Below are positions 613 to 50,663 of a stretch of DNA of 64,000 nucleotides, one piece after another. Origin of the DNA: Patescibacteria group bacterium (GTDB taxonomy: Bacteria; Patescibacteriota; Microgenomatia; UBA1400; PJMF01); assembly GCA_016861085.1 (NCBI GenBank), contig BOKR01000001.1, forward strand, positions 515,271-579,270, in the 5' to 3' direction. Under the pieces are notes generated by a model. The model saw nothing but the letters and a program-made list of their open reading frames with translations, did no database searches and was not told where the DNA came from. Each line of letters opens with the position of its first letter. Position 1 is the first letter of the stretch. Position numbers and translations under genes: made by a program.

Positions 613-624
613 AAAAGAGGTTCT

Positions 625-2889: not shown

Positions 2890-4193
2890 GTAGCATAAAA
2901 GATCTAATTGCAGAGTCTTATTTGTTGCGTCGAAGTTATGTTGCGGCAGACCTCGTTGAAGCAATTAATAACTTGGCAAAGCATACAAAAGTTGCATACA
3001 AAGACTACACATTCAAGTCTGGTTTAGAGCATAATGGTTGGGTTGTTCCAAGTGATTGGTCAGTTTCGGAAGCAAAAATTTATAAGGATAATACACTTAT
3101 CTATGATGGGATGTTACATCCACTTTCAGTGATTACTCAGTCAGCTTCTTTTACTGGCAAAATCACTCTGCAAGAACTCAAAAAGCATTTATATTTTGCT
3201 CCTCGAAAACCACATGCTATTCCTTTTCACTTTAGACTTTCGTATCGGCCCTGGCAAAAAGAGTGGGGATTTTGTTTGCCAAAAAATGTATTTGATTCTT
3301 TGGCTCCTGGTGAGTATGATGTGAAACTAAATACAACAGAGAAACCAGGAGAGATGGTTGTAAGAGAGTTTACGATACCTGGAAAGTCTAAAGAAACCAT
3401 TGTTTTTGCTGCACACATAGATCATCCAGGTATGTGCAATGATGATCTTGCTGGTTGTGCGGTCGGGGTTTCTTTGTTAAATGCCATCAAAAAACAATTT
3501 AAAAAAACTAAATATACCTACAAATTAATTTTGGTTCAGGAAATTGTTGGTTCAGTCTTTTACCTGAATGCACTCACGACAGAAGAGTTGAAAAACATTA
3601 AATATTCATTATTTTTAGAAATGCTTGGAAATGACAACACAATCAACTTGCAGAAGTCTTTTTTAGGGAACACTTACATAGATGCTGTCTGCACAACAGC
3701 CCTAAATAGCCTAAAAAACCTCTATAGAGTTTGTTCATTTAGAGAATCAGCCGGTAATGATGAAATAGTTTTTGAAGCTCCTGGCTATGAAATTCCAATG
3801 CCATCTATTTCTCGTTGGCCATATGATGAGTATCACACCAGCGATGATAACCTGGAAATTATTCATGAAGATAAACTGCAAGAATCTTTAGAATATTTGC
3901 TAAATATTGTATTTATTTTAGAGAACGATGTTTATGTAAAAAGGACATTTACGGGTATAGTCAGTTTAGCAAACCCAAAATATGATTTGTATATTGATCC
4001 AGGACAAATATTCACAGGTGGTTTGCATCAAAATAATAACGCCACTCAGTTTCAATATATGATGCCAAGACTTCTTGATGGCACATGCAAGATTTCCGAG
4101 CTAGCTCAAAAATTTAATTTAGATTTTAGTTGGTTGTTCAATTATTTGAACAAAATGAAAGAAAAAGGACTTGTACTATTTTTGGAGAAATAA
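2886..4193 (+). CDS. DUF4910/M28-like metallohydrolase-fold protein (aminopeptidase-like domain) in a sugar-tailoring context
   Basis: IVFAAHIDHPGMCNDDLAGCAVGVSLLNAI resembles the M28 Zn-binding region. Start chosen at the ATG overlapping the GNAT TGA stop (ATGA); the ORF track start is 2862. Confidence 0.5.
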   Translation: MSSIKDLIAESYLLRRSYVAADLVEAINNLAKHTKVAYKDYTFKSGLEHNGWVVPSDWSVSEAKIYKDNTLIYDGMLHPLSVITQSASFTGKITLQELKKHLYFAPRKPHAIPFHFRLSYRPWQKEWGFCLPKNVFDSLAPGEYDVKLNTTEKPGEMVVREFTIPGKSKETIVFAAHIDHPGMCNDDLAGCAVGVSLLNAIKKQFKKTKYTYKLILVQEIVGSVFYLNALTTEELKNIKYSLFLEMLGNDNTINLQKSFLGNTYIDAVCTTALNSLKNLYRVCSFRESAGNDEIVFEAPGYEIPMPSISRWPYDEYHTSDDNLEIIHEDKLQESLEYLLNIVFILENDVYVKRTFTGIVSLANPKYDLYIDPGQIFTGGLHQNNNATQFQYMMPRLLDGTCKISELAQKFNLDFSWLFNYLNKMKEKGLVLFLEK

Positions 4194-7185: not shown

Positions 7186-8053
7186 GTATTTTTTTTACTG
7201 CTTTACTTTTTTTTGATACAGCTACCAAATTTACTGTTTTAGGAAAATTGTAATTAGCATTAATCAAAGAAAGTTTTTCATTATTATCAAATTTAAATAC
7301 AAAAAAATTATTGTTTTTAAGTAGTTCTATTAATTCTTTGGACTTATATCCAAAGTCTGCTATTTTTTTGTTTAACTCAAATAGAATTATACTTATTTTA
7401 TTTTCACGAAAACAATTTTTGGCTCCTTGAAATACAAACAGTTCAGCCCCTTCAACGTCCACTTTAAGAAAATCAATATAATTAATGCCCTTTTCTTTTA
7501 CAAAAGTGTCTAGAGTTATGCAATTAACTATTTTTACATTTTTATCTTCGATATTTTCAGATGCTATGTGATTTATTTCAGACTCAGCCTCCAGAACAAA
7601 CTTGATTTTCCCATTTTTCTTTGATACCGCTTTTTGAATTATCTCAACTCTTTTGCTGAAACCGTTGATTGCTATGTTTTCCTTTAGTAGTGGAATTAAG
7701 CTATCGGTCGGTTCAAAAGCAAAAACTTTTACATTTTTTCCTTTTGAAGCAGCTAAAATTGATTCAGAGCCGATATTTGCGCCCACATCAATAACTAAAT
7801 CACCATTAGTAATCGTTTTGTTTATAAAGTTCATTTCTTCATATTCCGGGAAATTGGCGTATACAACAAAGCTCCCATAAGAACTGTTGGGATAACATAT
7901 AAGTTTAGCAGACTTAGTGATTTGTATTATTGCGGGGATTTTAAAAAAAACTTGATTCAGTTTCCACCAAATTATTTTTAAGAAAGTCTCTCTCTTTCGA
8001 TTTCTATTTAGTGGGTGGTTAAGAAGCTTCTTTAGTTGGTTTATCTTTTGCAT
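7172..8053 (-). CDS. FkbM-family methyltransferase
   Basis: LVIDVGANIGSESI...VFAFEP and a C-terminal FLKVDVEGAE motif characteristic of the FkbM family. Confidence 0.7.
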   Translation of the reverse strand: MQKINQLKKLLNHPLNRNRKRETFLKIIWWKLNQVFFKIPAIIQITKSAKLICYPNSSYGSFVVYANFPEYEEMNFINKTITNGDLVIDVGANIGSESILAASKGKNVKVFAFEPTDSLIPLLKENIAINGFSKRVEIIQKAVSKKNGKIKFVLEAESEINHIASENIEDKNVKIVNCITLDTFVKEKGINYIDFLKVDVEGAELFVFQGAKNCFRENKISIILFELNKKIADFGYKSKELIELLKNNNFFVFKFDNNEKLSLINANYNFPKTVNLVAVSKKSKAVKKILEYV

Positions 8054-9141
8054 GTGGAGTCAATGATCTTTTGTTCCGTAAGTAATGCGTCAATAAAAAA
8101 TTTTGTTGCCCAATTTAGATATGCCAGCCTACAATATCCTTGGTTTTTCAGAATATCACCATATATAGGATCACTACCTGCAATTGCTCCGTTTATAGCT
8201 TTGAATGGCGATGCTATTAGTTGCTTAGTTTTGAGATATTTATTCATTTTTGAAGCGGCATATAAGAATTTCTTGTTCTTGGTGATTTTATATAATTCAA
8301 GCCACATTAAAGAAATTTGAGCGTCCCCAGTTAAACAGGAATATTTGTCTTGTGATTGCCAATTTGAGTCAAAAGATCCAGGTAGAAAATTGTGTTTTAG
8401 ATAATAATTCAAGAGTGGGACAGAACCTCTTAAAGCAATTTTTAAAAGTTGAGAGTTACTTAGTATCAGTCCGGACCAAAGAAAACCTTCTACTGCATAA
8501 GAAATAGTATGTGTATACGGTAGCTGTATGTTTGGTTGTGGAAGTTCATTTTTTGCAAACCACCCGTTTGGTAGTTGTTGACTTTTGGCCCATTCTAAAT
8601 TTTTAATTGCAGCTGTTTTAAATTTGTTTTTTCCAGATATTTGATAGACTTTAAGAATTCCCCATGCTACGCGAGTATGATATGTATGTGTTGTATTTCC
8701 GTATGTATTTTTTACCCATGATCCATCTTTTTCTTGAATTGAGAGCAAATATTCAGCAGCTGCAATGGCTGATTTTAGGTATTTTTTGTTATTAGTGAGC
8801 TCATATATGGCAGATATTCCAATTAGATCTTGTCCCATATTAAATACTACTACTGCATCATCATTCTTTTGTTTTGGTGTATAGAGTTTGTATGCTCCGT
8901 TTGGAAGTTGCATTTTTAGTAAAAAATCTGCCATTTTGATGGCACGTGATCTATATTGTGGATCTTTAAAGTATTCGTATGCATCTAGAAATGTATTGAT
9001 AATGTATCCAGTTGTTTCTATATATGATGGTTGCCAACCATTAAGCAATGAAAACCATGCAGAAACACCGCCGTCACCAGTTTTGTCTTGTGCAAGCATC
9101 AACCATGCAAGCGCAGCCTTAATATTCTTTTTGTTATTCAT
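8041..9141 (-). CDS. Alpha/alpha-toroid repeat protein with prenyltransferase/terpene-cyclase-like QxxDG[GS]W repeats
   Basis: Four spaced repeats: LAQDKTGDGGV, KMQLPNGAY, SIQEKDGSW, SQQLPNGWF. Aromatic-rich. No TM segments. Confidence 0.4.
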   Translation of the reverse strand: MNNKKNIKAALAWLMLAQDKTGDGGVSAWFSLLNGWQPSYIETTGYIINTFLDAYEYFKDPQYRSRAIKMADFLLKMQLPNGAYKLYTPKQKNDDAVVVFNMGQDLIGISAIYELTNNKKYLKSAIAAAEYLLSIQEKDGSWVKNTYGNTTHTYHTRVAWGILKVYQISGKNKFKTAAIKNLEWAKSQQLPNGWFAKNELPQPNIQLPYTHTISYAVEGFLWSGLILSNSQLLKIALRGSVPLLNYYLKHNFLPGSFDSNWQSQDKYSCLTGDAQISLMWLELYKITKNKKFLYAASKMNKYLKTKQLIASPFKAINGAIAGSDPIYGDILKNQGYCRLAYLNWATKFFIDALLTEQKIIDSTCKR

Positions 9142-14411: not shown

Positions 14412-15451
14412 ACAATCTTTTCAATGATTATAAAGTAGATATGAAGAATTGGATTGACAACGTATTTGATAAGAGGGTTTGAAAATTTCTCGAATGTTAT
14501 GGCTGATTCGAATTGTTTAAAAATAGTGGAATCAGCAACTTTCCTCTTACTTTGTATAAATGACCTTTTTTCTACTATATGCTTGTAACTTTTTAGAATA
14601 CTCATATATGTTCTCAATTTAGTTGTACCCCATCTATCAAAGAAAGCAAATATGAGCATTCCCAACTCCATAAATATAAACATTGGGAGTAACAACAAAA
14701 GAGTTTTGATTGAGTAATTTTTTAAGATAGTTACTATTCGATTTCGCTCAATATAAAACAGTTTTTTTTGTAACGGTTGATATGTTTCCTTTGGAATGTA
14801 TTTATAATCGTGAAATAAAATACTCTTCGGTGCGAAAACCATTTTTTTATCGAGTAAATTGAATTTCCAAGATAAATCACTGTCTTCATAATACATAAAA
14901 TAGAATTCATCAAATCCACCAGCCTCAAGAAAGTCTTTCTTGTTTAGCAACACTCCAGAACCACTCAGTGAAAACAATTCACTTTTTTTGGGAATTCTAA
15001 CTTGATTAAAATCACGAAGCCAATCAAACCCTAAATAATGGGTTACTTTTCCAGTTAAATTAATAGTTTTTTTATCAAATAAATACACTAATGGTTGTAC
15101 AGCAGCAATATTTTTTTCATTTATCTCGTTTACTAATGGAGTTAAGAAATTTTTGTCAACAATTGTGTCAGGATTTATAACAAAAAATAGATCACCACGT
15201 GCCATAGCTATTGCTGCATTGTTCGCCTTAGCATATCCTAGATTTTGTGAATTAAAACTTACAACACTTTTATTGGGAAATTTTTTTTGATATTTCAGAA
15301 TAATTTTTTTTGTATTATCACTTGAATTATTGTCAACAATAATAACCTCGAACTGAGGATAGATATTAGAATAAAGCGACACCAAACAAGCTTCTAAATA
15401 TTCTTCAGAGTTATAAGTAACCAAAATAATTGAAACTAAAGGGCTTTTCAT
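14408..15451 (-). CDS. GT2-family glycosyltransferase (rhamnosyltransferase-like, with C-terminal extension)
   Basis: VSIILVTYNSEEYL, IIVDNNSSDNT. Start set at the ATGA overlap with the upstream epimerase stop; the ORF track start is 15475. Confidence 0.7.
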   Translation of the reverse strand: MKSPLVSIILVTYNSEEYLEACLVSLYSNIYPQFEVIIVDNNSSDNTKKIILKYQKKFPNKSVVSFNSQNLGYAKANNAAIAMARGDLFFVINPDTIVDKNFLTPLVNEINEKNIAAVQPLVYLFDKKTINLTGKVTHYLGFDWLRDFNQVRIPKKSELFSLSGSGVLLNKKDFLEAGGFDEFYFMYYEDSDLSWKFNLLDKKMVFAPKSILFHDYKYIPKETYQPLQKKLFYIERNRIVTILKNYSIKTLLLLLPMFIFMELGMLIFAFFDRWGTTKLRTYMSILKSYKHIVEKRSFIQSKRKVADSTIFKQFESAITFEKFSNPLIKYVVNPILHIYFIIIEKIV

Positions 15452-16458
15452 AGAAAACCGTTTTCTATATACCATTCACCCACAATTTTTGAGCCTTCTT
15501 TAAATGACACCTTTGGTTTGTATTCTAATTCTTTTTTTGCTTTAGAAATATTATAGTAATAAGTTGTAGTCATTGTTTTCACTCTAGAGGGAAATAATGG
15601 TAGCGTTTTCCCAGTTGCCCTTGTAAGGATCTGAAAAATATATGCTATACATAATGCTAGTGGTTTAGAAATACAGAGCTTGGGCACTGGTTTCCCAATG
15701 CTTTGCGCCACGTACTTTACTACATCTTTGAATTGGGTTGGATTAGGTCCTGCAATAATGTACTCTCCCGATGATCTTTTAGAAGCACCAGCTAAATATG
15801 TTGCAACTACCAGATCTCTGACAAATACATAATGCATTTTGTTGCTACCATTTCCGATCATTAGAAACTGTCCTGATTTAACAGCCTTATACAGCGCTAG
15901 AGTTGGGCCTTTTTCTCTTGGTCCATAGACACTGGCAGGACGGATAATTGCATATGCTAAACCATATTTTTTGTGAGCTGCTCTTACTGCTTTTTCTGCT
16001 TCCCATTTTGATCTACCATAAAAATTGGTATATGAAGGTTCATGAGTTTCATCCCAATTAACAATGTCACCGATACCTGCTGGCAGCCCATGAACTCCAA
16101 TACTACTATAGTTGATAAATTTCTTAAAATTTTTATTTTTTACAGCTTGAGTAAGTAGGTTCTTTGTCCCTTGTACATTTACATCTTCATATTCAGCATA
16201 CGTTTTGCCATCAAAATCAATTCGGGCAGCAAGATGATACACAGTCGTGACAGTTTCCATTGCTTTTGCAACATCCTTTTTATTTCTGATATCGCCAACT
16301 ATAATGTCAAAATTCCTTTTGGGTAAATTCTCAAGAGATTCTCCAGTTTTTATGAAAAGACGAAGACTAGATATCGGAATTTTTTTTTCGAGGAGATACT
16401 CAACTAAATGAGAGCCAATAAACCCAGCGGCACCAGTAACAAGTATCTTTTCTTTCAT
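15448..16458 (-). CDS. NAD-dependent epimerase/dehydratase (extended SDR) acting on a nucleotide sugar
   Basis: ILVTGAAGFIGSHLVEYLL glycine-rich NAD motif. YxxxK region present (YGRSKWEAE). Confidence 0.75.
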   Translation of the reverse strand: MKEKILVTGAAGFIGSHLVEYLLEKKIPISSLRLFIKTGESLENLPKRNFDIIVGDIRNKKDVAKAMETVTTVYHLAARIDFDGKTYAEYEDVNVQGTKNLLTQAVKNKNFKKFINYSSIGVHGLPAGIGDIVNWDETHEPSYTNFYGRSKWEAEKAVRAAHKKYGLAYAIIRPASVYGPREKGPTLALYKAVKSGQFLMIGNGSNKMHYVFVRDLVVATYLAGASKRSSGEYIIAGPNPTQFKDVVKYVAQSIGKPVPKLCISKPLALCIAYIFQILTRATGKTLPLFPSRVKTMTTTYYYNISKAKKELEYKPKVSFKEGSKIVGEWYIENGFL

Positions 16459-16461
16459 GAA

Positions 16462-17208
16462 TCAACTCTCTAAATTATATTTTAGAATTGCCCACACAGC
16501 CCTAAACGCATCTTTTAATCCGATTTTTTTACCATCCTCATATGTACGACCATGATAAGATATTCCAACTTCATAAATTCGAGCTTTTAATTTGGAGACT
16601 TTTGCTGTAACTTCTGGCTCAATACCAAAAGAGTTCTCTTTTATTTCAATCGACTGAATAATTTCTCTTCTAAAAACTTTGTAACAGGTTTCCATGTCAG
16701 TCATATTTAAGTTAGTAAACATATTTGAAAGAAGAGTAAGTAATGTATTTGCTGCATAATGCCAAAAATATACAACTCTATGAGCCTCTGATCCCATAAA
16801 TCGAGAACCATACACCACATCAGCTCTGCCTTCAAGAATTGGTTGAATAAGTTTTTTGTACTCCTTTGGGTCATACTCCAAATCTGCATCTTGAATGATT
16901 ACAATGTCACCGGTAGCTCTTGAAATGCCCTCACGAAGTGCTGATCCCTTACCACCGTTTTTATCTTTAAGGACTAAAACATCAATCGTACTTTTTATTT
17001 TTTCTAAAAGTTTTCGAGTGCTATCAGTGGATTTGTCATCAACCACAATCAATTCAAGCGATGAAATCCCACTATTTCTTACTTGCTTAATGATCTCAAC
17101 TATAGTTGCCTCTTCGTTGTACACCGGCATAACCACAGAGAGAAGTGGTTTTATTTTTTTTGTTTTAGTTTGCTTTTTTACGTTCATCAATCGCCTGCTT
17201 TCTAACAA
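16462..17208 (-). CDS. GT2 polyprenol-phosphate sugar synthase (DPM1/GtrB/CsbB-like)
   Basis: [32 protein letters not shown] are signature motifs of the Dpm1/GtrB clade. Start uncertain (17208 or 17187). Confidence 0.7.
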
Positions 17209-17500
17209 ATTCCTCTAATTTCTTTTGATTTTCTTTTTGCATGAAATAACTTAAAACCACAAGTACTGTGAGTACCATTAGCGCCAAAACTAATAATAAA
17301 TCAAAAACTCTTTGAAAACTAAGTCGCTGTGTAATTCCAGTTAGGAGATCTGGGAATAATGCTATTATGACAAATAAACCCCACATAGAATACCAAAAGG
17401 ACATTTCAATTAAAGACAGTTTTGATTTGTTTTTGTGAATGGACACCACATACATCATGAATAGAGCAAATAACGTCGCACCAATTTGAAATATACTCAT
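17165..17500 (-). CDS. DUF2304-like small membrane protein (2-3 TM segments) that typically accompanies GtrB-like GT2 enzymes
   Basis: Two hydrophobic helices followed by a charged C-terminus. ATGA overlap with the next GT2 gene. Confidence 0.5.
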
Positions 17501-18171
17501 AATGATATTCTCCAACTCAATATCTTTGTTATCATACGCACAGTATCCAAAATTGTCATCCCCCGCTCTAAATCATGATATATCGTTTTTATTGGGATCG
17601 TACTAAAGGGCATTTTATATTTTGCTGTTCTTGCAGCTATTTCCATTTCAACTGCATAATCTTGAGAATTCCATGCTAATTTTTTGTAGGCATGTTTTGA
17701 AATTGCTTTATAGCCACTTGGAATATCAGGAATATACTCACCAAATAAAAAGTAGATTACAGCAGAAGCAAGTCTATTCATCATAATTCTAACTAATGGC
17801 ATCTTGTCATCAAATGCTCTCACACCAAATACTACGTCTGATGATTCTAGTGCCTTATAAAAGAGCGAGAGTTCTTCTGGATCATGTTGATCATCACTAT
17901 CCATAAAAATAACTGCATCAGCTTTGAGTGTTTTAAAAGCATATTCGCAGCCAGTTTTAAGTGCAGCTCCTTTTCCAAGGTTAATAGAGTGGCATAACAC
18001 ATGCGGAGTTAGTTTTTGTGCTATTATTGCCATTTTGTCTTGAGACCCATCATCAACAACAATAATATTTTTGGATTGCTTTAGAACCTTTTTTAGAACG
18101 GTGGAAATATATTTTTCCTCATTTAATCCTGGAATAATAATCCAGACGTTATCTTTGAGCTGCTTACTCAT
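17497..18171 (-). CDS. GT2 polyprenol-phosphate sugar synthase (GtrB/ArnC-like), second copy
   Basis: IIIPGLNEEKYI, VVDDGSQD, FMDSDDQHDP motifs. 224 aa soluble-type. Confidence 0.7.
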   Translation of the reverse strand: MSKQLKDNVWIIIPGLNEEKYISTVLKKVLKQSKNIIVVDDGSQDKMAIIAQKLTPHVLCHSINLGKGAALKTGCEYAFKTLKADAVIFMDSDDQHDPEELSLFYKALESSDVVFGVRAFDDKMPLVRIMMNRLASAVIYFLFGEYIPDIPSGYKAISKHAYKKLAWNSQDYAVEMEIAARTAKYKMPFSTIPIKTIYHDLERGMTILDTVRMITKILSWRISL

Positions 18172-19091
18172 TAGTCTTTCCAGTAGTTCACAAAGTACTC
18201 TACAGTTTCTGTAATACCTTCATTAATACTAACTCGTGCGTGCCAGCCAAGTATATCTCTTGCTTTTTGAGCACTCGCATACAATACCAATGGATCACCA
18301 GGTCGCTCTGGCATGTGCACAATATTTGCTTTTTTTCCTAGTACGCGTTCAACTTCATGAGCAATTTCTAAGACGGTAGTTGGTTTTTCTGTACTCAAAT
18401 TGAAGTAATGATATTGTCTAGGATTTTTAAGAGCAAACTCTAATGACTTCATATGTGCATCAACAATATCTCGTACATGGATGTAATCTCTTTGGTGTTC
18501 ACCAGAGCCATATACTGTGACCTCTTGATCATTATAAATTTGTTTAATAAATCTTGGCATGGCATGAGATTCTGGTTCATGATGTTCCTCAGGACCATAT
18601 AAATTAAAGTATCGTAGGGCAACTCCAGTAAAACCATGTGCCTGAACATAACTTGAAATGAGGCCCTCCATAGCTAATTTTGTCATACCATATGGATTAA
18701 TTGGGATTGTTCTGTCATTCTCTTTAATTGGAATGTGTTGAGGTTCGCCATACACTGCTGCTGAAGAAGAAAATAAGATAGTCTTAATACCATTTTCTCT
18801 CATAGCCTCTAAAACTGATACTGTTCCAGAAATATTAACATCTACAAATCTTTGTGGGTGTTTAACTGACTCACCAGCTTCAATTAAGCCTGCAAAATGT
18901 AAAACCGCGTCAGCATCTCTAATTTCTTCTCGCATGCGCTTTGTATCTAGGATATCAGCAATTACCGTTTCGACATTTGAATCTTTGCTTGGCTTGATGT
19001 CAATATTTTTGATTTGATGACCCGCGATCTGTAGTGCACGAATCATATGTGTGCCCAAAAATCCTGAACCTCCAGTAACAATAATCTTCAT
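18171..19091 (-). CDS. NAD-dependent nucleotide-sugar epimerase (UDP-glucose 4-epimerase family)
   Basis: MKIIVTGGSGFLGTH; S...YxxxK catalytic region (YGMTKLAME). Confidence 0.7.
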   Translation of the reverse strand: MKIIVTGGSGFLGTHMIRALQIAGHQIKNIDIKPSKDSNVETVIADILDTKRMREEIRDADAVLHFAGLIEAGESVKHPQRFVDVNISGTVSVLEAMRENGIKTILFSSSAAVYGEPQHIPIKENDRTIPINPYGMTKLAMEGLISSYVQAHGFTGVALRYFNLYGPEEHHEPESHAMPRFIKQIYNDQEVTVYGSGEHQRDYIHVRDIVDAHMKSLEFALKNPRQYHYFNLSTEKPTTVLEIAHEVERVLGKKANIVHMPERPGDPLVLYASAQKARDILGWHARVSINEGITETVEYFVNYWKD

Positions 19092-19100
19092 ATTTTTCCT

Positions 19101-20288
19101 TTATGCTATCCAGTATCCCTGGACAAACATGACTGTATGTACTATTAGTAAAACTATACTCATTGTAAACCAAGTATACCTAAAAACTTTAGATTTTTCT
19201 GCCCAAATTGCCAGGATACTGAATATTGGAAAACAAACTAAAATATATCGGGGCATACTAGAAAATGTGCCAGTAATCGTTGGAACAAAGAAAGCTAGCA
19301 ATGCAAACAAAGTGCAACTTAATCTAGTTTTTGTCACTGAAAGTACAATTCCAAGTAATCCAAAAATTCCAACCAAGAACTCTAGAATATATGAATAATA
19401 TTTAAGATCAAATGGTCGAGCAGTTAAAAGTATTTTAATATACCGCCACACCACTTGTGGATATAAAACAACACTTTCTTGTCTGATTCCACCTCCAAAT
19501 TCTGATTGTACATGAAAAAAATAGAGGGGGTCACCAAATTCTTTATATAAATAGTACATATAAGCAAGTAAGCCAGCAGAACCCAATGCAACTATCCCAA
19601 CTGGTTGTATTACTTTTCTCCATGCTGTAAGGCTATTTTTGACGTTTTTTTGTAGTTCTTTAAGAGAGATGCCCCATTGAATATTTGGAAAAACAATTTC
19701 TATAAGTACTGCTGGCAATAATAAAATTCCGGTTACTCTTGTGGCACTTGCAAGCGCAATACAAAGAGCTGTCAACCAATATCTCTTCTTTTGTACAGAC
19801 CAAAATGTACCTATGACAAATAGTAGAAAGAGGGACTCTGTGTAAGATGCAGCAAAGAAGAAAGATGTTGGAAACAACAATAAGACTGCAGTTGCCCAAT
19901 AAGCTACTGTTTGGCTGAAACTATGCTTAATACATTGGTACCAGAAAAAAAGTAACAATAAAAATGAAACATTAGAGACAACTAAACTTGCCAAAAGATA
20001 ATTATCAACTATGAAGTTAACTATCTTTGATAAATACGGATAAACAGGGAAAAAAGCTTGGATAAGATCGGCTCCACGGTAGCCATTTTTCATAATTGTT
20101 AAATAATGAACACCATCAAAATTTGCCCAGGAATACACCCATCTTGGTAAATCAAATGTATCAAGTAGGCCATCGGCGTAAGGAAAGCTTGGATCGTAGG
20201 TTAAAACAGAATCAGCTAAAAAACCAATTAAAAAAAGAGCCAGACGCCAAAACAAAAAAATAATAAATAACTTCCAAAAAGTCTTCAT
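19101..20288 (-). CDS. GT-C-fold membrane glycosyltransferase, PIG-V/Mannosyl_trans2-like (GT76-like)
   Basis: About 10 TM segments. N-terminal loop WANFDGVHYLTIMKNGY resembles the conserved GPI-mannosyltransferase-2 motif. Confidence 0.5.
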   Translation of the reverse strand: MKTFWKLFIIFLFWRLALFLIGFLADSVLTYDPSFPYADGLLDTFDLPRWVYSWANFDGVHYLTIMKNGYRGADLIQAFFPVYPYLSKIVNFIVDNYLLASLVVSNVSFLLLLFFWYQCIKHSFSQTVAYWATAVLLLFPTSFFFAASYTESLFLLFVIGTFWSVQKKRYWLTALCIALASATRVTGILLLPAVLIEIVFPNIQWGISLKELQKNVKNSLTAWRKVIQPVGIVALGSAGLLAYMYYLYKEFGDPLYFFHVQSEFGGGIRQESVVLYPQVVWRYIKILLTARPFDLKYYSYILEFLVGIFGLLGIVLSVTKTRLSCTLFALLAFFVPTITGTFSSMPRYILVCFPIFSILAIWAEKSKVFRYTWFTMSIVLLIVHTVMFVQGYWIA

Positions 20289-21373
20289 TCAGATTTCTCG
20301 TGATTTAGTTTCAACACTTTTTTATATACTGTAGCTGTTTCTTGGGCAGTTTTATCCCAGCTGAAGTTTTGTGACCACTTGTATGCTTCCCGAATAAACG
20401 TATCTCTCCTTGTTTTAGACCAAGAAAGTACTTCAGCTACCTTAGCGGCAAAATCCTCAGCAGTTGGTTCGCTAAAAACCACATGTTCACCACCAACTTC
20501 TAGTAATGATGAATTACGACTACAGACAACTGGAGTGCGACATTGCATAGCTTCTAGAACTGGCAACCCAAATCCTTCATATAAAGAAGGCTGAATATAA
20601 AGCTGTGCACCTGTATATATTGCTCCTAATTCGTCAAGTGATTCAGTTAAAACGTTATTGAGAAAAACGACTCTATCTGAAACATCACTCAATGCCAGCT
20701 GGGTTTCTATCCATTGCCATTCAGGTATTTCTTGAGGAGTAAAGTTCCGGCCCAAACAGACCAACGTAACTGATTCATCTTCAATAAACTTCATCATTTT
20801 TATCAATTGTGGAATGTTTTTATTATAGTTAATATCCCCCACATATAAAATATATTTATCTGGTAGCTTATTTTTATATTTGACTCTTTTAATGATATCC
20901 TCGTCTTGAGCTCTCAAACTTGGATTGGCGGCTAAATACACAACATGAATCTTGTGTTCTGGAATTCTTAAGTGTTTGATAATGTCTGCTTTTGATGCCT
21001 GGGAATCTGTTATGACTGCAGCAGCACTTCTGAGCGCTAATTTTTGTTTCTTTAAGCGTAACTTCCCCTTGATACCAGCTTTGTAGTACTCAGGAAAGAT
21101 AAGTGGGATCACATCATGAACAGTTACAACCTTATTCTTAAATGGATTAATTGGTAACGTATCAAAATAAAGGTCAAAAAAAGGATAATGAATTATATCT
21201 GGCTTAATGGTGTCAGTTTTGCTCATCGTACTACTTTTATGCACCTCAATCTCGCTGATTCCTTCAAGATGTTCTAAAAGTAAACGAGCATATGTGCCAA
21301 TTCCGCGTGAAGAATGCTCACCAGCCAAAACACTTGTCTCAAACACTACAGTAATTTTTTTATCTGCTTGCAT
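20285..21373 (-). CDS. GT4-family glycosyltransferase
   Basis: QPSLYEGFGLPVLEAMQCRTPVVCS motif. Confidence 0.75.
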   Translation of the reverse strand: MQADKKITVVFETSVLAGEHSSRGIGTYARLLLEHLEGISEIEVHKSSTMSKTDTIKPDIIHYPFFDLYFDTLPINPFKNKVVTVHDVIPLIFPEYYKAGIKGKLRLKKQKLALRSAAAVITDSQASKADIIKHLRIPEHKIHVVYLAANPSLRAQDEDIIKRVKYKNKLPDKYILYVGDINYNKNIPQLIKMMKFIEDESVTLVCLGRNFTPQEIPEWQWIETQLALSDVSDRVVFLNNVLTESLDELGAIYTGAQLYIQPSLYEGFGLPVLEAMQCRTPVVCSRNSSLLEVGGEHVVFSEPTAEDFAAKVAEVLSWSKTRRDTFIREAYKWSQNFSWDKTAQETATVYKKVLKLNHEKSE

Positions 21374-22169
21374 AATTACCTTCTTTGGCCAGCTTCTTTT
21401 TTTCTTTTAGTTCCCAAAGCTGTAAGTATGCAACTGCATGATGCAGTCCACTCATGACAGCAAAAACAAATCCGGGTACCCCGTCAACAAACCCTTTATG
21501 TCTGATGAAAATTTGTAAAAAGGTTTTAAGGGGTTTAATACCTATGTACTCGAGTGTAGTTACAGGGTTTATTTGTATACCATCTTTTTCTAACTGGTGT
21601 GCTTTAAAGCTAGTATATGTTCCAAACTTTCGTAAATAATCAGCAAATGTAGGATTAGCAAAGTGAATTAAATGACCTTCTGCCCAACCAATTTCACCTT
21701 TCACTTGCATCTGTTCATGCACATCTTTTTGAGGCAGTTTTGCGTATCCATTTACGTACAGTCGAATAACAGGATCTGGATATTGACCCCCTTTTTGAAA
21801 ATATTGACCTAAAAAGTAATTCTTTCGTTTCAGCCACCAGGCTAGTGGGCCACGATACCCTTCTTTCATGATGATTTTATGGGTTCTTTTGATAAATTCC
21901 TTTAACTCATCATCAGGCCATTCATCTGCATCAAGTTGCAAAACCAACTCACCTTTAGCTTCATCCATAGCCATTTGCTTATTTATATGAAAGTTTGGTT
22001 TGTTAGAAGTAATAATTACTTTTGCCCCAAGCTTCTTAGCTAAATCTGGGGTTTTATCTGTGGAAGAGCCATCTACAACAATGATTTCACCTGCGATTTC
22101 TTTGATTGATCGCAAACATTTTTCAATATTTTTTTCTTCATTGTAAGTAGCTAAAACAACAGAAAGCAT
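21360..22169 (-). CDS. GT2-family glycosyltransferase; first gene of the long minus-strand operon
   Basis: LSVVLATYNEEKNI, IIVVDGSSTDKT, LQLDADEW motifs. Confidence 0.7.
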   Translation of the reverse strand: MLSVVLATYNEEKNIEKCLRSIKEIAGEIIVVDGSSTDKTPDLAKKLGAKVIITSNKPNFHINKQMAMDEAKGELVLQLDADEWPDDELKEFIKRTHKIIMKEGYRGPLAWWLKRKNYFLGQYFQKGGQYPDPVIRLYVNGYAKLPQKDVHEQMQVKGEIGWAEGHLIHFANPTFADYLRKFGTYTSFKAHQLEKDGIQINPVTTLEYIGIKPLKTFLQIFIRHKGFVDGVPGFVFAVMSGLHHAVAYLQLWELKEKKKLAKEGNYASR

Positions 22170-33533: not shown

Positions 33534-35201
33534 ATGCAATTTACTTCTAGACTTGTGTTAGGGCTCTTACTCGTTCTTGTTAGTTTTATAAGCTTAGCAG
33601 ATTTAATTTATAGGCCGGGACATCCGGTAACTTTTGATGGGCATGTGCACATGACCACAATGAACCAATTTGCACAAAGCTTATATGATGGTGAGTTTCC
33701 CGTTACTTGGGCAAATAATTTTGCCAATTTTGGTCACCCATTACCAATAATTGCACACCAAGTACCAGCATATTTAGGTGCTACTTTAATATTACTCGGA
33801 TTTTCCACAGAGCTTGCGTACATCTCATTAATTTCTGTATCTGTTCTTTTTTCTAGCTTTTTGTTTTATGCTTTCTTTAGAAAATTTGCTGATCAAGCAC
33901 TTTCACTTACAGCAACTGTTTTTTCTGTATTTTTTCCGTATAGAGTATTAAACATTTATACAAGAGGTGGACTCCCTGAATTAATGGCAACAATTTTTCT
34001 CCCCATTTTGTTGCTTGCTGTATGGAACGTCCAAAAAAAGAAGTATTTTAAGGCGACTTTACTCTTTTATATAGGTGTACTTGGTACTGCACTGACACAC
34101 CCCATGATGCTTGTTATTTTTTGTGTTCCTGTACTAGCATACTTTTTTTATGGATTAGATAAAAAACATTTAAAAAAAGAATTGCAAATAGCAGTTGTTG
34201 GCGCTAGTTTAGGCATACTCAGTGCGAGCTACTATCTTATCCCTCTTTTAATTGAGATGCGCTATTTTTACCAATCAAGGGTTGAAAAAGCTGTCGGAGC
34301 AGACACCTTTTTAACAGTCAAGCAACTTTATGATCCTACTTGGTACTATACACTCACACATCCGGGTCCAAGAGGTAACTATATCAAGTTAGGAACAATT
34401 GAGTGTATCATTTTAGCTCTCGCAGTAACAATATTAGTCTCACTATTACTGCTACCAAAACACCAATATATAAAAAAATACTTTAACAAAGATACGGCAA
34501 AAAATTTACTTTTTTGGACGAGCCTAAGTGGTTTGTTATTACTACTTATGTTACCTATTAGTAAACTACTGTATTCACTTCCTGTAATATATCAAATTCA
34601 ATATCCTTGGAGATTTTTAGCGGCATTACAAATTACTATTCCTTTGGTTTTTATTTTTCTCATTCAAACTTTTAAAAAACTGAACAACTTTTATATTTTT
34701 ATTGTTTGTATTGCGTTAGTTTTGTGGTTTAGAATTCCACAGTTCTACGGCAAGAACTATATTGTCCAACCTGAAAGTGATTATTTTTTTAATCAAGCAA
34801 ATTTACACAGCACTAACTTCAATACAGTATGGTCTAGTAATACTGAAGACTACGAGAAAAAAACCGTCCAAGCGAAAATAATTGAGGGAGCAGGCGAGCT
34901 CACAATACTAGAAGAAAAGAATGCAAGCCGCCTATATAAAACCAAAAGTGATTTCGAATTGAGACTACTAGACTATACTTTTTACTTTCCAGGATGGACT
35001 ACATATGTTGATGGGTCACCAGTTATTATTGAGTATCAAGATCCAAGCTACAGAGGCTTAATTACTTATAAGGTCCCTTCAGGAGAACATGAGATTAAAG
35101 TTGTATACGAATATTCAAAAGTAAGATTAGTCGGGTTATTAGCAACAGTTGTAGGGCTGCTAGCATTTCCAGTAGTTTTATTTATTATTCGAAAAAAATA
35201 G
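33534..35201 (+). CDS. YfhO-like GT-C membrane glycosyltransferase, paralog 3
   Basis: YDGEFPVTWANNFANFGHP, QYPWRFLA, and C-terminal YTFYFPGWTTYVDG...SGEHEIKV. Confidence 0.5.
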   Translation: MQFTSRLVLGLLLVLVSFISLADLIYRPGHPVTFDGHVHMTTMNQFAQSLYDGEFPVTWANNFANFGHPLPIIAHQVPAYLGATLILLGFSTELAYISLISVSVLFSSFLFYAFFRKFADQALSLTATVFSVFFPYRVLNIYTRGGLPELMATIFLPILLLAVWNVQKKKYFKATLLFYIGVLGTALTHPMMLVIFCVPVLAYFFYGLDKKHLKKELQIAVVGASLGILSASYYLIPLLIEMRYFYQSRVEKAVGADTFLTVKQLYDPTWYYTLTHPGPRGNYIKLGTIECIILALAVTILVSLLLLPKHQYIKKYFNKDTAKNLLFWTSLSGLLLLLMLPISKLLYSLPVIYQIQYPWRFLAALQITIPLVFIFLIQTFKKLNNFYIFIVCIALVLWFRIPQFYGKNYIVQPESDYFFNQANLHSTNFNTVWSSNTEDYEKKTVQAKIIEGAGELTILEEKNASRLYKTKSDFELRLLDYTFYFPGWTTYVDGSPVIIEYQDPSYRGLITYKVPSGEHEIKVVYEYSKVRLVGLLATVVGLLAFPVVLFIIRKK

Positions 35202-36353
35202 CTTGTGCTTTCTTGAAAATAGTATTGCCAGAACAGCTAATAGTAACAAACCTGAACCTATGGAAAATGTTACAGTATGCACAGACGTTGCATCAATATA
35301 TTTACCAATGTAGTACGCACCAAAAACGTATGGTATATTGGCTAACATACTATACGTTGAAAGCGTAGTGGCTCTATATTTAGAAATAGTTTCAGAATTA
35401 ATTGTTGCACTTGCGTTGTTTCCAAACAATTCAATCAGACCATTTCTTAGCACAATAACAACAGTACCCAAAATGACCGATGTGTATGGAATGATTACCA
35501 TACTTACAGAAATAAACACCGCAAATAGCAGGACTGACTTCCAAACTCCAATTCGTCGTGAAATGGGCAATGCCATCTGACCAAAAATTGATGAAACAAA
35601 ATACATTCCAAAAACAATGAGACCAAGCTGTGAGCTATTCCACCCTTGCTCAACTAATTGAGAATCAATTAAAACATGACCATTAATAACAACGAACATT
35701 GTCAAAAGAATTAATAACATATTTTTTATCAGTACCCGCCTTGACTTAAATAATTCCCTAAAGCCATATATATTCTGCTTAATATAGTTACTCCAAGTAA
35801 AGACTTCAGAATCAATTGGTGGCTCTTTCAAAAATAGGCTCAAAAAAATGGCTACGAAAATCATTAGAGCTAAACCAAGGAATGGATATCCAGGATTCAT
35901 TTTATATAAAATGCCGCCAAATATACTTGAAACTGCCAAAGAAGCCATTTTGAAGCTTGAGATATTACTCAATACTTTTTGATATGTTTGCTCGCGTTTT
36001 TCTGTAAGTAGTGTGTCATATACTAATGCTTCAACTGTTCCAGATGAAAAAGCAGAGCTAATAGTTGCCATTACGACACCAAGAGCCAAAAAAGAAAATG
36101 AATCTGCTGTACCCATGAAAATATAACCTATGAAACCAAACAGATATGATACTGTCAAGGTATATTTCTTTCCCAACATATCAGCGATAGCTCCTGTTGG
36201 GATTTCGGCTAATACAGAGGTTATAATCATTATAGATTCTAGTACCCCGATCCCTGAGTAATCTGTATGCAGTAGATAAAAAAGTACCCAGATTGGTGCC
36301 CAAAAACGACTATAATTAAGGATTGTAAGAATATATACAAGTTTGATATTCAC
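35178..36353 (-). CDS. MFS-superfamily transporter
   Basis: About 12 TM segments with an MFS-like loop between TM2 and TM3 (GAIADMLGKK). Confidence 0.6.
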   Translation of the reverse strand: MNIKLVYILTILNYSRFWAPIWVLFYLLHTDYSGIGVLESIMIITSVLAEIPTGAIADMLGKKYTLTVSYLFGFIGYIFMGTADSFSFLALGVVMATISSAFSSGTVEALVYDTLLTEKREQTYQKVLSNISSFKMASLAVSSIFGGILYKMNPGYPFLGLALMIFVAIFLSLFLKEPPIDSEVFTWSNYIKQNIYGFRELFKSRRVLIKNMLLILLTMFVVINGHVLIDSQLVEQGWNSSQLGLIVFGMYFVSSIFGQMALPISRRIGVWKSVLLFAVFISVSMVIIPYTSVILGTVVIVLRNGLIELFGNNASATINSETISKYRATTLSTYSMLANIPYVFGAYYIGKYIDATSVHTVTFSIGSGLLLLAVLAILFSRKHKLFFSNNK

Positions 36354-43394: not shown

Positions 43395-44324
43395 CTATAT
43401 ATATAACTTTCGACGAATTTTCCAAATAAGTTGTCTAATACCAGAAGTATTCTCAACGTGCCAGTTTGCAATCCAGTATGCAAGCTCCCTATTAAACTGT
43501 GCTAATTCGGATACAGTTGCTTCTTCTTGTTGTTTATCAGATTCAGGAAATCCACTCTTTTCCCAAGATTTTATAGCCACTACAGCTTCAGAAAACCCTT
43601 GTAGTAACGATAATGCCAGTCCATGAGTACCATCATTTACTCCTCTTTGTGCAAAAAACCGAGATAAAAACTCAGAGTAAAATTTCTTTGTGATACATGA
43701 GCCATCAACTTCTGTCTGTTCTTTTTCGAGTTCAGTTACCAATTCCTCAGACTGAATTGAAGTATATCTATTCAACCGGTCAATGTATTGATTAACATGT
43801 TGATAGTTATGGTGAATAAGCGCAATACCAGTGACAGCTGGTAATTCCCTTACTTCTCCTTTTGTAATTGGAATTGAATGAATTTCATCAGACCAAGAAA
43901 CAAACCCTTTCTTGAAAAGTCTCAATACATAATCTGGCCACCAGCCTGTCTTTTCAAAAGCCTTGTTAAAAATATAGTTAAGTCGTGGAATATAATAACA
44001 ATCAGCAGTTTCTTCACCTGAATCTGAAGATTTCAGAATTCCTTTAATAGCTTTTTCTAGTTCTTGTGGAACTTCTTCATCAGCATCTAAAATTAAAATC
44101 CAGTCTCCACTTGCTTTTTTAATCGCAAAATTTCGAGCTGGCTCTACATACCCCACATCTTTATGAGCAAAAATTTTATCGGTATATTTAGTTGCAATTT
44201 CTACCGTACTATCGTCGCTTTTCATGTCAACAATGATTATTTCATCGGCAAATGAGACAGATTTTAATGCAGCTTCTATTGTTTTTTCCGCATTCTTTGT
44301 ATTAATGACGACTGATAGTTTCAT
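43395..44324 (-). CDS. GT2-family glycosyltransferase
   Basis: LSVVINTKNAEKTI, IIIVDMKSDDST, ILDADEEV motifs. Confidence 0.7.
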   Translation of the reverse strand: MKLSVVINTKNAEKTIEAALKSVSFADEIIIVDMKSDDSTVEIATKYTDKIFAHKDVGYVEPARNFAIKKASGDWILILDADEEVPQELEKAIKGILKSSDSGEETADCYYIPRLNYIFNKAFEKTGWWPDYVLRLFKKGFVSWSDEIHSIPITKGEVRELPAVTGIALIHHNYQHVNQYIDRLNRYTSIQSEELVTELEKEQTEVDGSCITKKFYSEFLSRFFAQRGVNDGTHGLALSLLQGFSEAVVAIKSWEKSGFPESDKQQEEATVSELAQFNRELAYWIANWHVENTSGIRQLIWKIRRKLYI

Positions 44325-45883
44325 GAACGTAAGCTCCTTAACTCCATGAGTACTTTATTTTTTCCAAACAACAGTAGTGTAACAAAATAGGTGAGGGCAG
44401 TTAAGAGCATACCAAACAAGAAGTGCTTAAAACTTTGTGACCAAATTTGTATACCCAGGCCTCCAACTACGGCCATCGCTACAGATGCAAGTGTCTGTCG
44501 CCATACCTGATCAATAAATGAGAGTGGGACAACTTTCTTGACCATAATGACAGAGAAAATTGAAGTAAAAGAAATAAAGAATGATGCAATTGCCACCCCG
44601 TTGTACCCAAACATATAAACACAAATCGGAGTAACTATCCAAGTTAATATAGTCCACATCATCATTAATTTGAGCGTTTTGTTTATCTGACCAATCGCAT
44701 TAAGTGTATTTGTAAGAGGAGTTGAAACAGCACTCCAAGCAATACTAAGACTAAATAACACTAAACTAAAAACAGCAGGTTCCCATTTCTGCCATTTTGG
44801 TATCAGCTGAATAAATGGCCAAATGAAAACACTCATACCAACTAAGATTGGAAATATCGCCAATGTTATAAAGAATATTGATTTTTCTATTGCACGCTTG
44901 AGTGCTTGAGTATTTCCTTGTAGTCTTGAAAAAGTTGGGAACGTAATAGCCATTACATTTTGAACTGTTAAATTATAGGGATACATAGAGTAGTTTTTGC
45001 CCCAATTGATATAACCAAACTCTGCCAAATTTAAATATAATCCAAGAACTAAATAAAACAATTGATCTTTAATTCTCGCCAAAAAATCATTAATTTGAAA
45101 TTTAACTCCAAACTTAAACATCTCTGCAAATGCTACTTTACTAAATCCAAATGACAAAGCCCAAGGTTGAATCATAAACATTGAAAGAGCACCAACTATA
45201 GACCGCATAAAAATAGCGTACGCATATGCCATTGCACCCACACCCTTAATTGCAAGAAAGATTAAAATGCCATTAAATACCAGTTGCTCTATGATTTGAG
45301 GTATCACTAACTTAGAAAATTCCAAACGTCTTTCCAGTATCACAGAGGGTATTGTTTTAAGCGAAGCAAGCGGAAATCCAAGAGCTAATGAAAGTAAAAT
45401 CCAGACACCTGCTGGACCAGTCTTGGCCTGAATAACACCTGTGGCAAGCACCAAAAGAACAATTCCAACAATAACCCAACTCAATGCTTGCTGAATCGTG
45501 AATGCGGTCACATAATCGGCCTTAGTAGGGTCAGATTTTTTTTGAATCAGTGATGCAGCTAATCCTACATCTGAAAAAAAAGTCAACAATCCAACTATCG
45601 GAATCACTAATCCATAAATTCCGAAATCCTCTGGAGTAAAATACCAAGAAAGTACTGCAACCGAAGCCAAACCAATTCCTTGCAAAAAAATGGTTCTTAT
45701 AAAGTAAGAAATTGCTCCACTAACAGTTTTTTTCTTAATGTCACGCAATACTTCTGTTTCAACTTGAGTATCATGGACTTCTTGTTCAGGAAACAAGTCT
45801 GTCACTTCCGGTTCAAGCTCCTGAGAAAAGAGTGCTGACTTTTTGCGCTTAACCTCTAAGCTAGCTTGTACTTTATTAATCAT
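44321..45883 (-). CDS. Wzx-type oligosaccharide/polysaccharide flippase (MOP superfamily)
   Basis: 520 aa with about 14 TM helices, polysaccharide-biosynthesis-protein-like topology. Located at the head of a GT2/GT4 block. Confidence 0.55.
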   Translation of the reverse strand: MINKVQASLEVKRKKSALFSQELEPEVTDLFPEQEVHDTQVETEVLRDIKKKTVSGAISYFIRTIFLQGIGLASVAVLSWYFTPEDFGIYGLVIPIVGLLTFFSDVGLAASLIQKKSDPTKADYVTAFTIQQALSWVIVGIVLLVLATGVIQAKTGPAGVWILLSLALGFPLASLKTIPSVILERRLEFSKLVIPQIIEQLVFNGILIFLAIKGVGAMAYAYAIFMRSIVGALSMFMIQPWALSFGFSKVAFAEMFKFGVKFQINDFLARIKDQLFYLVLGLYLNLAEFGYINWGKNYSMYPYNLTVQNVMAITFPTFSRLQGNTQALKRAIEKSIFFITLAIFPILVGMSVFIWPFIQLIPKWQKWEPAVFSLVLFSLSIAWSAVSTPLTNTLNAIGQINKTLKLMMMWTILTWIVTPICVYMFGYNGVAIASFFISFTSIFSVIMVKKVVPLSFIDQVWRQTLASVAMAVVGGLGIQIWSQSFKHFLFGMLLTALTYFVTLLLFGKNKVLMELRSLRS

Positions 45884-48752: not shown

Positions 48753-48754
48753 AT

Positions 48755-48994: not shown

Positions 48995-49029
48995 TTATTA
49001 CAGAATCTCAAGGTAAGCTAGGGGCAGAT

Positions 49030-50052: not shown

Positions 50053-50061
50053 AAGGTAATT

Positions 50062-50649: not shown

Positions 50650-50663
50650 AAGGGACAAAGTAC

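Follow-up and report, generated by a model that had tools for sequence, protein, structure and literature searches.

Organisation of the trio and its operon

Positions 16462-18171 of a 64,000-nucleotide stretch of a Patescibacteria group bacterium genome (contig BOKR01000001.1; the whole 64-kb stretch is termed the window) comprise exactly three consecutive open reading frames (ORFs) on the minus strand, which encode a family 2 glycosyltransferase (GT2-A), a small membrane protein of the DUF2304 family and a further family 2 glycosyltransferase (GT2-B). In public records they are annotated as “glycosyltransferase family 2” and “DUF2304 family protein”. A preliminary description of the locus, termed here the sequence-only reading, had proposed two GT2 enzymes of Dpm1/GtrB signature flanking a small membrane protein. 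That description is confirmed: the coordinates are exact, the signature motifs are present and the intervening protein displays three predicted transmembrane (TM) segments. TM calls are based on hydropathy and thus denote hydrophobic segments.

The three genes are translationally coupled. An ATGA overlap joins the stop codon of GT2-A to the start codon of the DUF2304 gene, with a GGAG-type ribosome-binding site visible, while the ATG of GT2-B sits 23 nt inside the 3′ end of the DUF2304 gene. Upstream, the stop codon of a GalE-like gene shares 1 nt with the start of GT2-A. The DUF2304 start was taken as MSIFQ, which is kept in 39/39 aligned homologues, and GT2-B was taken in its 241-residue form, which equals the length annotated by NCBI. 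The trio is part of a packed 18-gene minus-strand operon extending from position 22169 down to 5225, whose other genes encode GT2s, family 4 glycosyltransferases (GT4s), short-chain dehydrogenases/reductases (SDRs), a UDP-GlcNAc 2-epimerase, a UDP-sugar dehydrogenase and methyltransferases. In a scan for promoters and terminators, counts were not above shuffled expectation; a promoter-like site of the extended -10 type, which is plausible, lies upstream of the first operon gene.

Sequence families, motifs and predicted fold of GT2-A and GT2-B

By sequence and predicted fold, GT2-A and GT2-B are closest to polyprenyl-phosphate glycosyltransferases and do not resemble processive polysaccharide synthases. 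Both match the Pfam GT2 family (E = 8.6e-24 for GT2-A and 6.7e-35 for GT2-B). The signature reads FMDSDDQHDP in GT2-A, where DSD corresponds to residues 91-93, and DADLEYDP in GT2-B (residues 100-107). Among the nine GT2 genes of the window the motif DxDx(Q/E)(H/Y)xP is found in these two only, and they are mutual closest paralogues within the window (~50 bits, 26% identity). No TM helix is predicted in either protein.

The best NCBIfam match of GT2-A is PpgS (NF058614; E = 2.3e-25, residues 9-213 aligned with positions 2-215 of the 226-position model), followed by AglJ, whereas GT2-B matches AglJ best (E = 2.4e-36, residues 24-244) and then ArnC (E = 5.4e-20). AglJ initiates on dolichyl phosphate (Dol-P) and AglG elongates; GT2-B scores 125.7 bits on the AglJ model and only 24 bits on AglG. 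In these comparisons GacI, PpgS, WpsA, CsbB and AglJ were represented by NCBIfam models and PDB chains as proxies. When the PDB was searched with the sequences, the best match of both proteins was the DPMS of Pyrococcus furiosus, aligned over residues 9-221 of GT2-A and residues 16-237 of GT2-B (E = 1.6e-19), with ArnC next in both cases (E = 5e-16 for GT2-B). The DPMS alignments span the whole catalytic domain of both enzymes, including the C-terminal helices.

Confident AlphaFold2 models of GT2-A and GT2-B were obtained (pLDDT 92.1 and 88.4, respectively). Structural similarity search against the PDB using Foldseek placed ArnC, DPMS and GtrB structures at all of ranks 1-20 for the GT2-B model (E from 4e-17 to 3e-12), with GpgS following, while the GT2-A model returned ArnC at the top ranks and then DPMS and GpgS interleaved. 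Residue functions in P. furiosus DPMS (PfDPMS) were taken from PMC5526996 and mapped by alignment. GT2-A retains the equivalents of PfDPMS E12, D39, D89, D91, Q93, H94, R117 and R131, the last six of which align with GT2-A residues D91, D93, Q95, H96, R118 and R128. GT2-B retains those of E12, D39, D89, D91 and R117, the latter as R129. Both enzymes thus keep the residues that bind metal and donor in DPMS and the arginine that contacts its acceptor phosphate (Arg117), except that Gln93 is retained in GT2-A only. Where DPMS has its interface helices, both models carry helices of hydrophobic or amphipathic character, and the two proteins are more likely peripheral membrane enzymes than soluble ones. 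The term “soluble” in the sequence-only reading is therefore imprecise.

The DUF2304 protein

Membership of the small protein in the DUF2304 family, which the sequence-only reading had put forward, was confirmed by profile search (PF10066; E = 1.7e-16, with a score of 60.8 bits where the gathering threshold is 25.5). Loop 1 and the C-terminal tail are rich in Lys and Arg, which argues for an N-out, C-in topology. The C-terminal part is predicted to form a basic cytoplasmic helix, and two residues of the tail, E96 and R100, are invariant or nearly so among homologues. A kinship with flippases of the small multidrug resistance (SMR) or ArnE/ArnF type was also considered; alignment of the DUF2304 profile with Escherichia coli ArnE and ArnF using hhalign revealed no relationship, and an NCBIfam hit to MdtI, an SMR protein, which was very weak (E = 0.004), was treated as TM composition bias.

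Conservation of the module across Patescibacteria

A scan of one genome per species yielded 43 loci encoding a DUF2304 relative, essentially all in metagenome-assembled genomes (MAGs) of Patescibacteria, with related records named Pacebacteria, Woesebacteria or Microgenomates. Mapping of the ORFs of each locus to the proteins of the window showed GT2-A immediately upstream of the DUF2304 gene in 42/43 loci, and the ATGA overlap between the two is present in 34 of the 39 genome loci in which it was evaluated. A GalE-like SDR directly precedes GT2-A in 31/43 loci, and an orthologue of the GT-C protein encoded two genes upstream of GT2-A (19101..20288; Table 1) lies upstream of the pair in 32/43. 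The conserved unit thus comprises GT-C, GalE-like epimerase, GT2-A and DUF2304 protein, a full donor-plus-transferase set, bar the flippase, within one operon. Orthologues of two further operon genes, the GT2 starting at 21360 and the GT4 starting at 20285, usually precede the GT-C.

The extended order, GT2 (21360), GT4 (20285), GT-C (19101), GalE-like, GT2-A and DUF2304, is conserved in ~30 Patescibacteria genomes, often with an extra YfhO/PTPS-like gene between the GT4 and the GT-C. The window lacks this extra gene (~550 aa) at that slot, and its nearest relatives in the window (29395, 23772, 33534 and 45880) lie in the GT-C array described below. Many MAG records carrying the Patescibacteria-type locus are titled “uncultured Pseudomonadales bacterium”, and there is one Limisphaerales and one Methylococcaceae title; these are probably taxonomic mislabels (L001, L003, L010, L012, L015, L017, L020, L021, L024, L025, L027, L029-L031, L035 and L037-L039).

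Distribution and relatives of GT2-B

In contrast to the conserved pair, GT2-B is a lineage-variable addition. An orthologue follows the DUF2304 gene in 10/43 loci, and its start overlaps the end of that gene by 8-23 nt wherever it is present, including in homologues of 66-69% identity retrieved in two further look-ups. In 23/43 loci the position after DUF2304 is occupied by a generic WcaE/TuaG-like GT2, followed by a GDP-fucose-synthase-like SDR, and 11 of those 23 add a 316-aa, TM-bearing GT2 of the PgfS/GtrB/ArnC kind beside a polytopic protein of ~520 aa. GT2-B (10 loci) and the GtrB-like GT2 (11 loci) were never found together within the 6-kb flanks. At one locus, L036, the WcaE-like gene is retained and GT2-B stands as an insertion between it and the DUF2304 gene.

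The 11 loci with the TM-bearing GT2 are L005, L006, L011, L014, L016, L017, L023, L024, L026, L027 and L033, where the gene lies at ~7-11 kb in locus coordinates; at L006, the one locus scanned, the protein scores 246 bits on the PgfS model. The ~520-aa polytopic protein is nearby in about six of the 11, and the GDP-fucose-synthase-like SDR is usually there. This sister-lineage set resembles a second, classical three-component glycosylation module, which the window lacks.

GT2-B belongs to a large subfamily, with 2434 cluster representatives at E ≤ 1e-30. Domain fusions were surveyed in the best 150 of these (mostly ~48-64% identity), 84 of which are at least 300 aa long. Among the 84 long relatives, five are fused to a GtrA/DPMS TM domain and two to a PMT_2 GT-C domain (both kinds in relatives of 50-60% identity), about 25 display 3-11 TM segments straight after the catalytic domain, and 32 are fused to class-I S-adenosylmethionine (SAM) methyltransferases. 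The fusions to DPMS-type TM domains and to GT-C domains argue that members of this subfamily also make polyprenyl-phosphate sugars. In two relatives, P0457 and P0481, a pair of Dpm1-like GT2 domains is joined in tandem. The known Dpm1, GtrB and ArnC systems offer no explanation for the methyltransferase architecture, and the methyltransferases encoded in the window (from 6475 and from 4171), considered as counterparts of the fused domains, display no homology to them.

The constant overlap of the GT2-B and DUF2304 genes suggests that the DUF2304 protein may be the membrane partner of GT2-B as well. The SDR gene directly downstream of GT2-B (15448..16458), whose product matches Pfam Epimerase (E = 1.9e-38) and has otherwise weak family matches, was considered as a dedicated partner and rejected, as it travels with the GT2_14408/GT4_13266 block and occurs with it in L002, where GT2-B is absent.

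Nucleotide-sugar supply, GT-C partner and flippase candidates

The coordinates of the trio and of the genes most relevant to its function are collected in Table 1.

Table 1. Genes of the trio and functionally related genes of the window
Gene product	Coordinates	Strand	Properties and predicted role
GT2-A	17497..18171	-	224 aa, TM-less, GacI/PpgS/WpsA type; predicted catalytic subunit of a polyprenyl-phosphate sugar synthase
DUF2304 protein	17165..17500	-	111 aa, 3 TM, GacJ/Rv3632/WpsB type; predicted anchor/activator of GT2-A, possibly also of GT2-B
GT2-B	16462..17187	-	241 aa from ATG, TM-less, Dpm1-fold, different subfamily; predicted second polyprenyl-phosphate glycosyltransferase
GalE-like UDP-hexose 4-epimerase	18171..19091	-	Probable nucleotide-sugar supplier for GT2-A
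PIG-V/PMT_2-like polytopic GT-C	19101..20288	-	395 aa; likeliest cognate transferase for the GT2-A/DUF2304 product
Second SDR (epimerase/dehydratase family)	15448..16458	-	Directly downstream of GT2-B
Wzx-type transporter (Polysacc_synt_3)	44321..45883	-	Pfam E = 1.5e-47; 12 hydrophobic segments; 26 kb from the trio

The GalE-like protein matches the NCBIfam galE model with E = 7e-66 (222 bits against a cut-off of 262), its best PDB matches are UDP-glucose 4-epimerases (E = 4e-50) and its identity to E. coli GalE is 32%. The bulky gatekeeper residue Tyr299 of E. coli GalE is replaced by Leu (L270), and a smaller residue at this position permits N-acetylated substrates. In Mycobacterium tuberculosis the gene of a UDP-Gal/GalNAc 4-epimerase, Rv3634c (GalE1), which is studied in PMC5389812, lies near ppgS (Rv3631) as deduced from locus numbering. 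Taken together, the coupled epimerase gene, the Tyr299 to Leu replacement and the mycobacterial parallel make Gal or GalNAc a reasonable guess, from sequence, for the sugar handled by GT2-A.

The GT-C encoded upstream of the epimerase passes the gathering cut-off of Pfam Mannosyl_trans2 (PIG-V; 27.8 bits, cut-off 22.4), matches PMT_2 weakly and displays ~10 hydrophobic segments. PIG-V is a GT-C enzyme that uses Dol-P-Man. The sequence-only reading had coupled the synthases to the array of GT-C genes in the same locus; a donor-plus-transferase arrangement is indeed supported, but the most likely partner of the pair, judged by comparative genomics, is the syntenic GT-C within the operon and not the divergently placed array.

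Eleven polytopic GT-C-like proteins are encoded in the window, ten within the array at 22233-47613 and the eleventh being the in-operon GT-C. The array includes YfhO/PTPS-like paralogues (23772, 29395, 33534 and 45880), PMT_2-like paralogues (26086, 27783, 36357 and, weakly, 31613) and two singletons (22233 and 37990); 26086, 37990 and 31613 are without a significant Pfam match.

The flippase candidates in the window are restricted to the Wzx-type transporter of Table 1 and a major facilitator superfamily (MFS) gene at 35178..36353. GacK and WpsG, the flippases of known systems, are of the Wzx type; the link between the Wzx-type gene and the trio is tentative. Positions 47664-51539 hold a LytR-CpsA-Psr (LCP) ligase gene followed by rmlB-, rmlC- and rmlD-like genes, and the locus thus resembles the rhamnose-rich wall polysaccharide clusters of Gram-positive bacteria.

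Comparison with characterised synthases

In size, in the absence of predicted TM helices and in the order and coupling of their genes, GT2-A and the DUF2304 protein display a GacI/GacJ-type architecture, and the pair falls within a kind of system that has been characterised before. GacI/GacJ of Streptococcus pyogenes, as well as EpaI/EpaJ of Enterococcus faecalis, is a GlcNAc-P-undecaprenol synthase with its DUF2304 activator, and acts with GacK and GacL. GacJ (113 aa, 3 TM) and GacI associate in a complex that is stable in detergent; with GacJ, the Km of GacI for undecaprenyl phosphate (Und-P) falls from 18.7 to 1.1 µM, and the GlcNAc-P-Und product has been proposed to be flipped by GacK and then used by the GT-C enzyme GacL. 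Shared with this system are a TM-less GT2 of ~225-230 aa followed by a co-transcribed, ~110-aa DUF2304 protein bearing 3 TM segments, as well as a rhamnose/LCP-type wall-glycan locus containing GT-C enzymes and a Wzx protein. The likeness is one of architecture, and there are differences: the host belongs to the candidate phyla radiation (CPR), the end of the DUF2304 gene is overlapped by that of a second Dpm1-fold GT2, the candidate Wzx gene lies at a distance of 26 kb, and the upstream coupling of a GalE-like gene hints that the sugar may not be GlcNAc.

PpgS (Rv3631)/Rv3632 of M. tuberculosis is a polyprenyl-phospho-N-acetylgalactosaminyl synthase stimulated by its DUF2304 protein Rv3632, with Rv3779 as the GT-C. 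PpgS is the best curated family for GT2-A, and a DUF2304 partner and a nearby 4-epimerase gene are common to both loci. By the equivalog cut-off GT2-A is not a PpgS orthologue, and arabinogalactan, the acceptor polymer in M. tuberculosis, has no counterpart here. In Lactococcus, WpsA/WpsB is a GlcNAc-P-C55 synthase whose product primes assembly of the pellicle repeat unit. An AlphaFold2 model of that pair shows the C-terminal helix of the DUF2304 protein touching the GT2, and a WpsB-WpsA fusion is active; natural fusions of DUF2304 proteins to GT2s also exist. The pair architecture, a variable glycosyltransferase gene directly after the DUF2304 gene and DPMS as the closest solved fold are shared with the locus described here, where in contrast the downstream enzyme, GT2-B, is itself Dpm1-like and not a generic elongating glycosyltransferase. 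In all three cases (GacJ, Rv3632 and WpsB) the DUF2304 gene directly follows the gene of a TM-less GT2, the DUF2304 protein binds and activates that GT2, and the resulting lipid-linked sugar is used by a GT-C.

With P. furiosus DPMS, Synechocystis GtrB and Salmonella ArnC, GT2-A and GT2-B have in common the GT-A domain, the Arg117 equivalent, helices at the interface-helix positions and, with Glu and Tyr for Gln and His in the case of GT2-B, the metal motif DxD(L)Q(H), at 19-26% identity. DPMS, GtrB and ArnC have their own C-terminal TM helices, whereas neither GT2-A nor GT2-B has any. In this respect both resemble human DPM1, which is TM-less and tethered by the small membrane protein DPM3. 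The sequence-only reading had cited GtrA/B/C, CsbB/YfhO and ArnC/ArnT as models. Since the synthases of these systems have TM helices of their own, the TM-less GT2 and DUF2304 pairs GacI/GacJ, PpgS/Rv3632 and WpsA/WpsB are the closer relatives. The trio as a whole is a lineage-specific elaboration of this known pair.

Proposed function and alternative explanations

The domains, motifs, predicted folds, absence of TM helices, coupling of the genes and synteny described above are consistent with a GacI/GacJ-type GT2-A/DUF2304 synthase that, together with GT2-B, probably (at roughly 0.7) loads sugars on polyprenyl phosphate for surface glycosylation by GT-C enzymes. Complex formation, the lipid acceptor, the sugar, the flipping step and the choice of GT-C are proposed by reference to the homologous systems. 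At the inner face of the membrane, the DUF2304 protein would dock the TM-less GT2-A through its basic C-terminal helix and would improve its use of the lipid acceptor. GT2-A would then take a UDP-sugar as donor, probably one whose hexose or HexNAc has been 4-epimerised by the GalE-like enzyme, and transfer a single sugar to polyprenyl (C55) monophosphate with the help of a metal ion bound by the DxD and Gln residues. The lipid-linked sugar would be flipped across the membrane and used outside by a GT-C, for which the likeliest candidate is the PIG-V-like protein of 395 aa whose gene lies two genes upstream. GT2-B would supply other GT-C enzymes in the locus with a second polyprenyl-phosphate sugar, and may have the same DUF2304 protein as its membrane partner. 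The suggestion of the sequence-only reading that there are two different lipid-linked sugars is thus plausible, but with GT2-B in only 10/43 loci it would apply to this sub-lineage alone. It is conceivable, as a more speculative proposal, that a single DUF2304 subunit, coupled at its gene start to GT2-A and at its gene end to GT2-B, supports a “two-headed” synthase of two sugars, which would replace the TM-bearing GtrB-like enzyme of sister lineages.

Several results weigh against this interpretation. Both GT2s fall far below the equivalog cut-offs of their best families (GT2-A, 89.4 bits on PpgS against 370; GT2-B, 125.7 bits on AglJ against 325), so that sugar specificity is not transferable from the PpgS and AglJ families. 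In GT2-B, PfDPMS Gln93 and His94 are replaced by Glu104 and Tyr105, and Arg131 and Ser135 align with Trp and Ala, although the alignment is uncertain in the interface-helix region. GpgS, which acts on a soluble acceptor, is a strong Foldseek match, interleaved with DPMS and ArnC in the case of GT2-A. No DUF2304 fusion was found among the best 150 GT2-B representatives, which leaves gene adjacency as the indication of a GT2-B/DUF2304 partnership. The in-operon GT-C has no sequence relative in the PDB, whether searched as a single sequence or as a 29-sequence profile. Finally, no flippase gene adjoins the trio, and the GtrA-like protein considered in the sequence-only reading did not materialise: no GtrA (PF04138) match was found in the window ORFs of at least 100 aa that were scanned, nor in unannotated membrane ORFs at E ≤ 1.

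The identity of the pair is not at issue in the most serious alternative, which concerns the fate of its product. The GT2-A/DUF2304 product could be a primer that cytoplasmic glycosyltransferases of the operon extend to an oligosaccharide, a Wzx protein flips and a GT-C transfers en bloc to a wall polymer, as in the Wps pathway. The variable GT2 after DUF2304 (here GT2-B), the GT2 at 21360 and the GT4 at 20285 would be the candidate extenders. In Lactococcus the product of WpsA/WpsB, homologues of GacI/GacJ, is elongated by WpsC, a strain-variable glycosyltransferase encoded directly after wpsB, and in Patescibacteria the slot after DUF2304 is likewise variable (GT2-B in 10 loci, a WcaE-like GT2 in 23) while one GT2 and one GT4 gene accompany the module as conserved members. 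Wzx, LCP ligase and rml genes are present, no WecA/WbaP-type initiating phosphoglycosyl transferase was found within the 64-kb window and nothing found contradicts a primer role for the GT2-A product. The fold, motifs and relatives of GT2-B are those of an initiating enzyme, however, as reflected in its AglJ and AglG scores (126 versus 24 bits) and in the fusions of its relatives to GtrA/DPMS TM and GT-C domains, and in L036 GT2-B was added before the WcaE-like gene and did not replace it. The primer pathway is therefore regarded as a possible but less probable course of events, and the role of C55-P-monosaccharide donor assigned to the products by the sequence-only reading is to be held with that alternative in mind. 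Action of GT2-B on a soluble phosphorylated or small-molecule acceptor, as in GpgS, or on a sugar that is later methylated, is improbable. The strong Foldseek matches of both models to GpgS structures, the 32 methyltransferase fusions among the 84 long relatives, an architecture atypical of Dpm1, GtrB and ArnC enzymes, and the lack of conservation of the DPMS acceptor residues Arg131 and Ser135 are in line with such an activity, but polyprenyl-phosphate transferases fill the first 20 Foldseek ranks of GT2-B ahead of GpgS, the NCBIfam GpgS match is limited to residues 13-127, relatives are fused to GtrA/DPMS TM and GT-C domains, and GT2-B always lies beside a membrane-protein gene within a surface-glycan operon.

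It is more doubtful still that the DUF2304 protein is a flippase, functionally analogous to GtrA or ArnE/F, and not merely an activator. Such a role would account for the lack of GtrA in the window and of a flippase gene adjoining the pair, the very weak MdtI match points the same way, and PMC12992685 raises the idea that the PfDPMS product could be flipped by the TM domain of that enzyme itself; against it stand the lack of any profile relation to E. coli ArnE and ArnF and the documented function of GacJ and WpsB as activators in systems that have separate Wzx flippases, GacK and WpsG. That GT2-A and GT2-B are processive polysaccharide synthases can practically be dismissed. The sole support is similarity to PgaC/IcaA, NodC and chondroitin synthase, and these matches end at about residue 125, covering the N-terminal nucleotide-binding half only; TM helices are lacking, the QxxRW motif was not found in the translations of GT2-A and GT2-B, and full-length and fold matches lead to Dpm1, ArnC and GtrB. 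Over their whole length both enzymes group with Dpm1, PpgS, AglJ, ArnC and GtrB, in agreement with the sequence-only reading, which had named clustering with processive synthases as the result that would overturn it.

Other features of the window

Three GT2 genes of the window (21360-22169, 41594-42412 and 43395-44324) are mutual paralogues (90-109 bits) with a “DADE” motif. Their alignment to the Pfam GT2 model is confined to roughly its N-terminal two-thirds, and one of them heads the conserved module. On the plus strand, positions 22-4193 encode a DegT-type aminotransferase truncated at the window boundary, together with NeuB, a GT2 of 225 aa, a GNAT acetyltransferase and a peptidase-like protein of the DUF4910/M28 kind, a set that looks like nonulosonic acid synthesis of the pseudaminic or legionaminic type. 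A 366-aa protein encoded within the glycan operon, at 8041-9141 on the minus strand, displays weak matches to alpha/alpha-toroid proteins (pectic acid lyase, the C-terminus of glucuronyl C5-epimerase, GH127 and LanC-like); its gene adjoins that of the UDP-sugar dehydrogenase, and it could be a uronic-acid-modifying enzyme.

Implications for the surface of Patescibacteria

GacI/GacJ-type synthases with a GT-C partner were earlier characterised in streptococci, enterococci, lactococci and mycobacteria, and no paper linking Patescibacteria to such a system was found. The locus described here extends this kind of system to the Patescibacteria (CPR), and current understanding of it is not overturned. 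CPR bacteria have tiny genomes yet large surface-glycan loci, and their envelope chemistry is essentially unknown. The module of GT-C, GalE-like epimerase, GT2 and DUF2304 protein provides a testable entry to the surface sugars of these organisms, and the GT2-A/DUF2304/GT2-B trio is a natural test of whether one DUF2304 protein serves more than one catalytic subunit.

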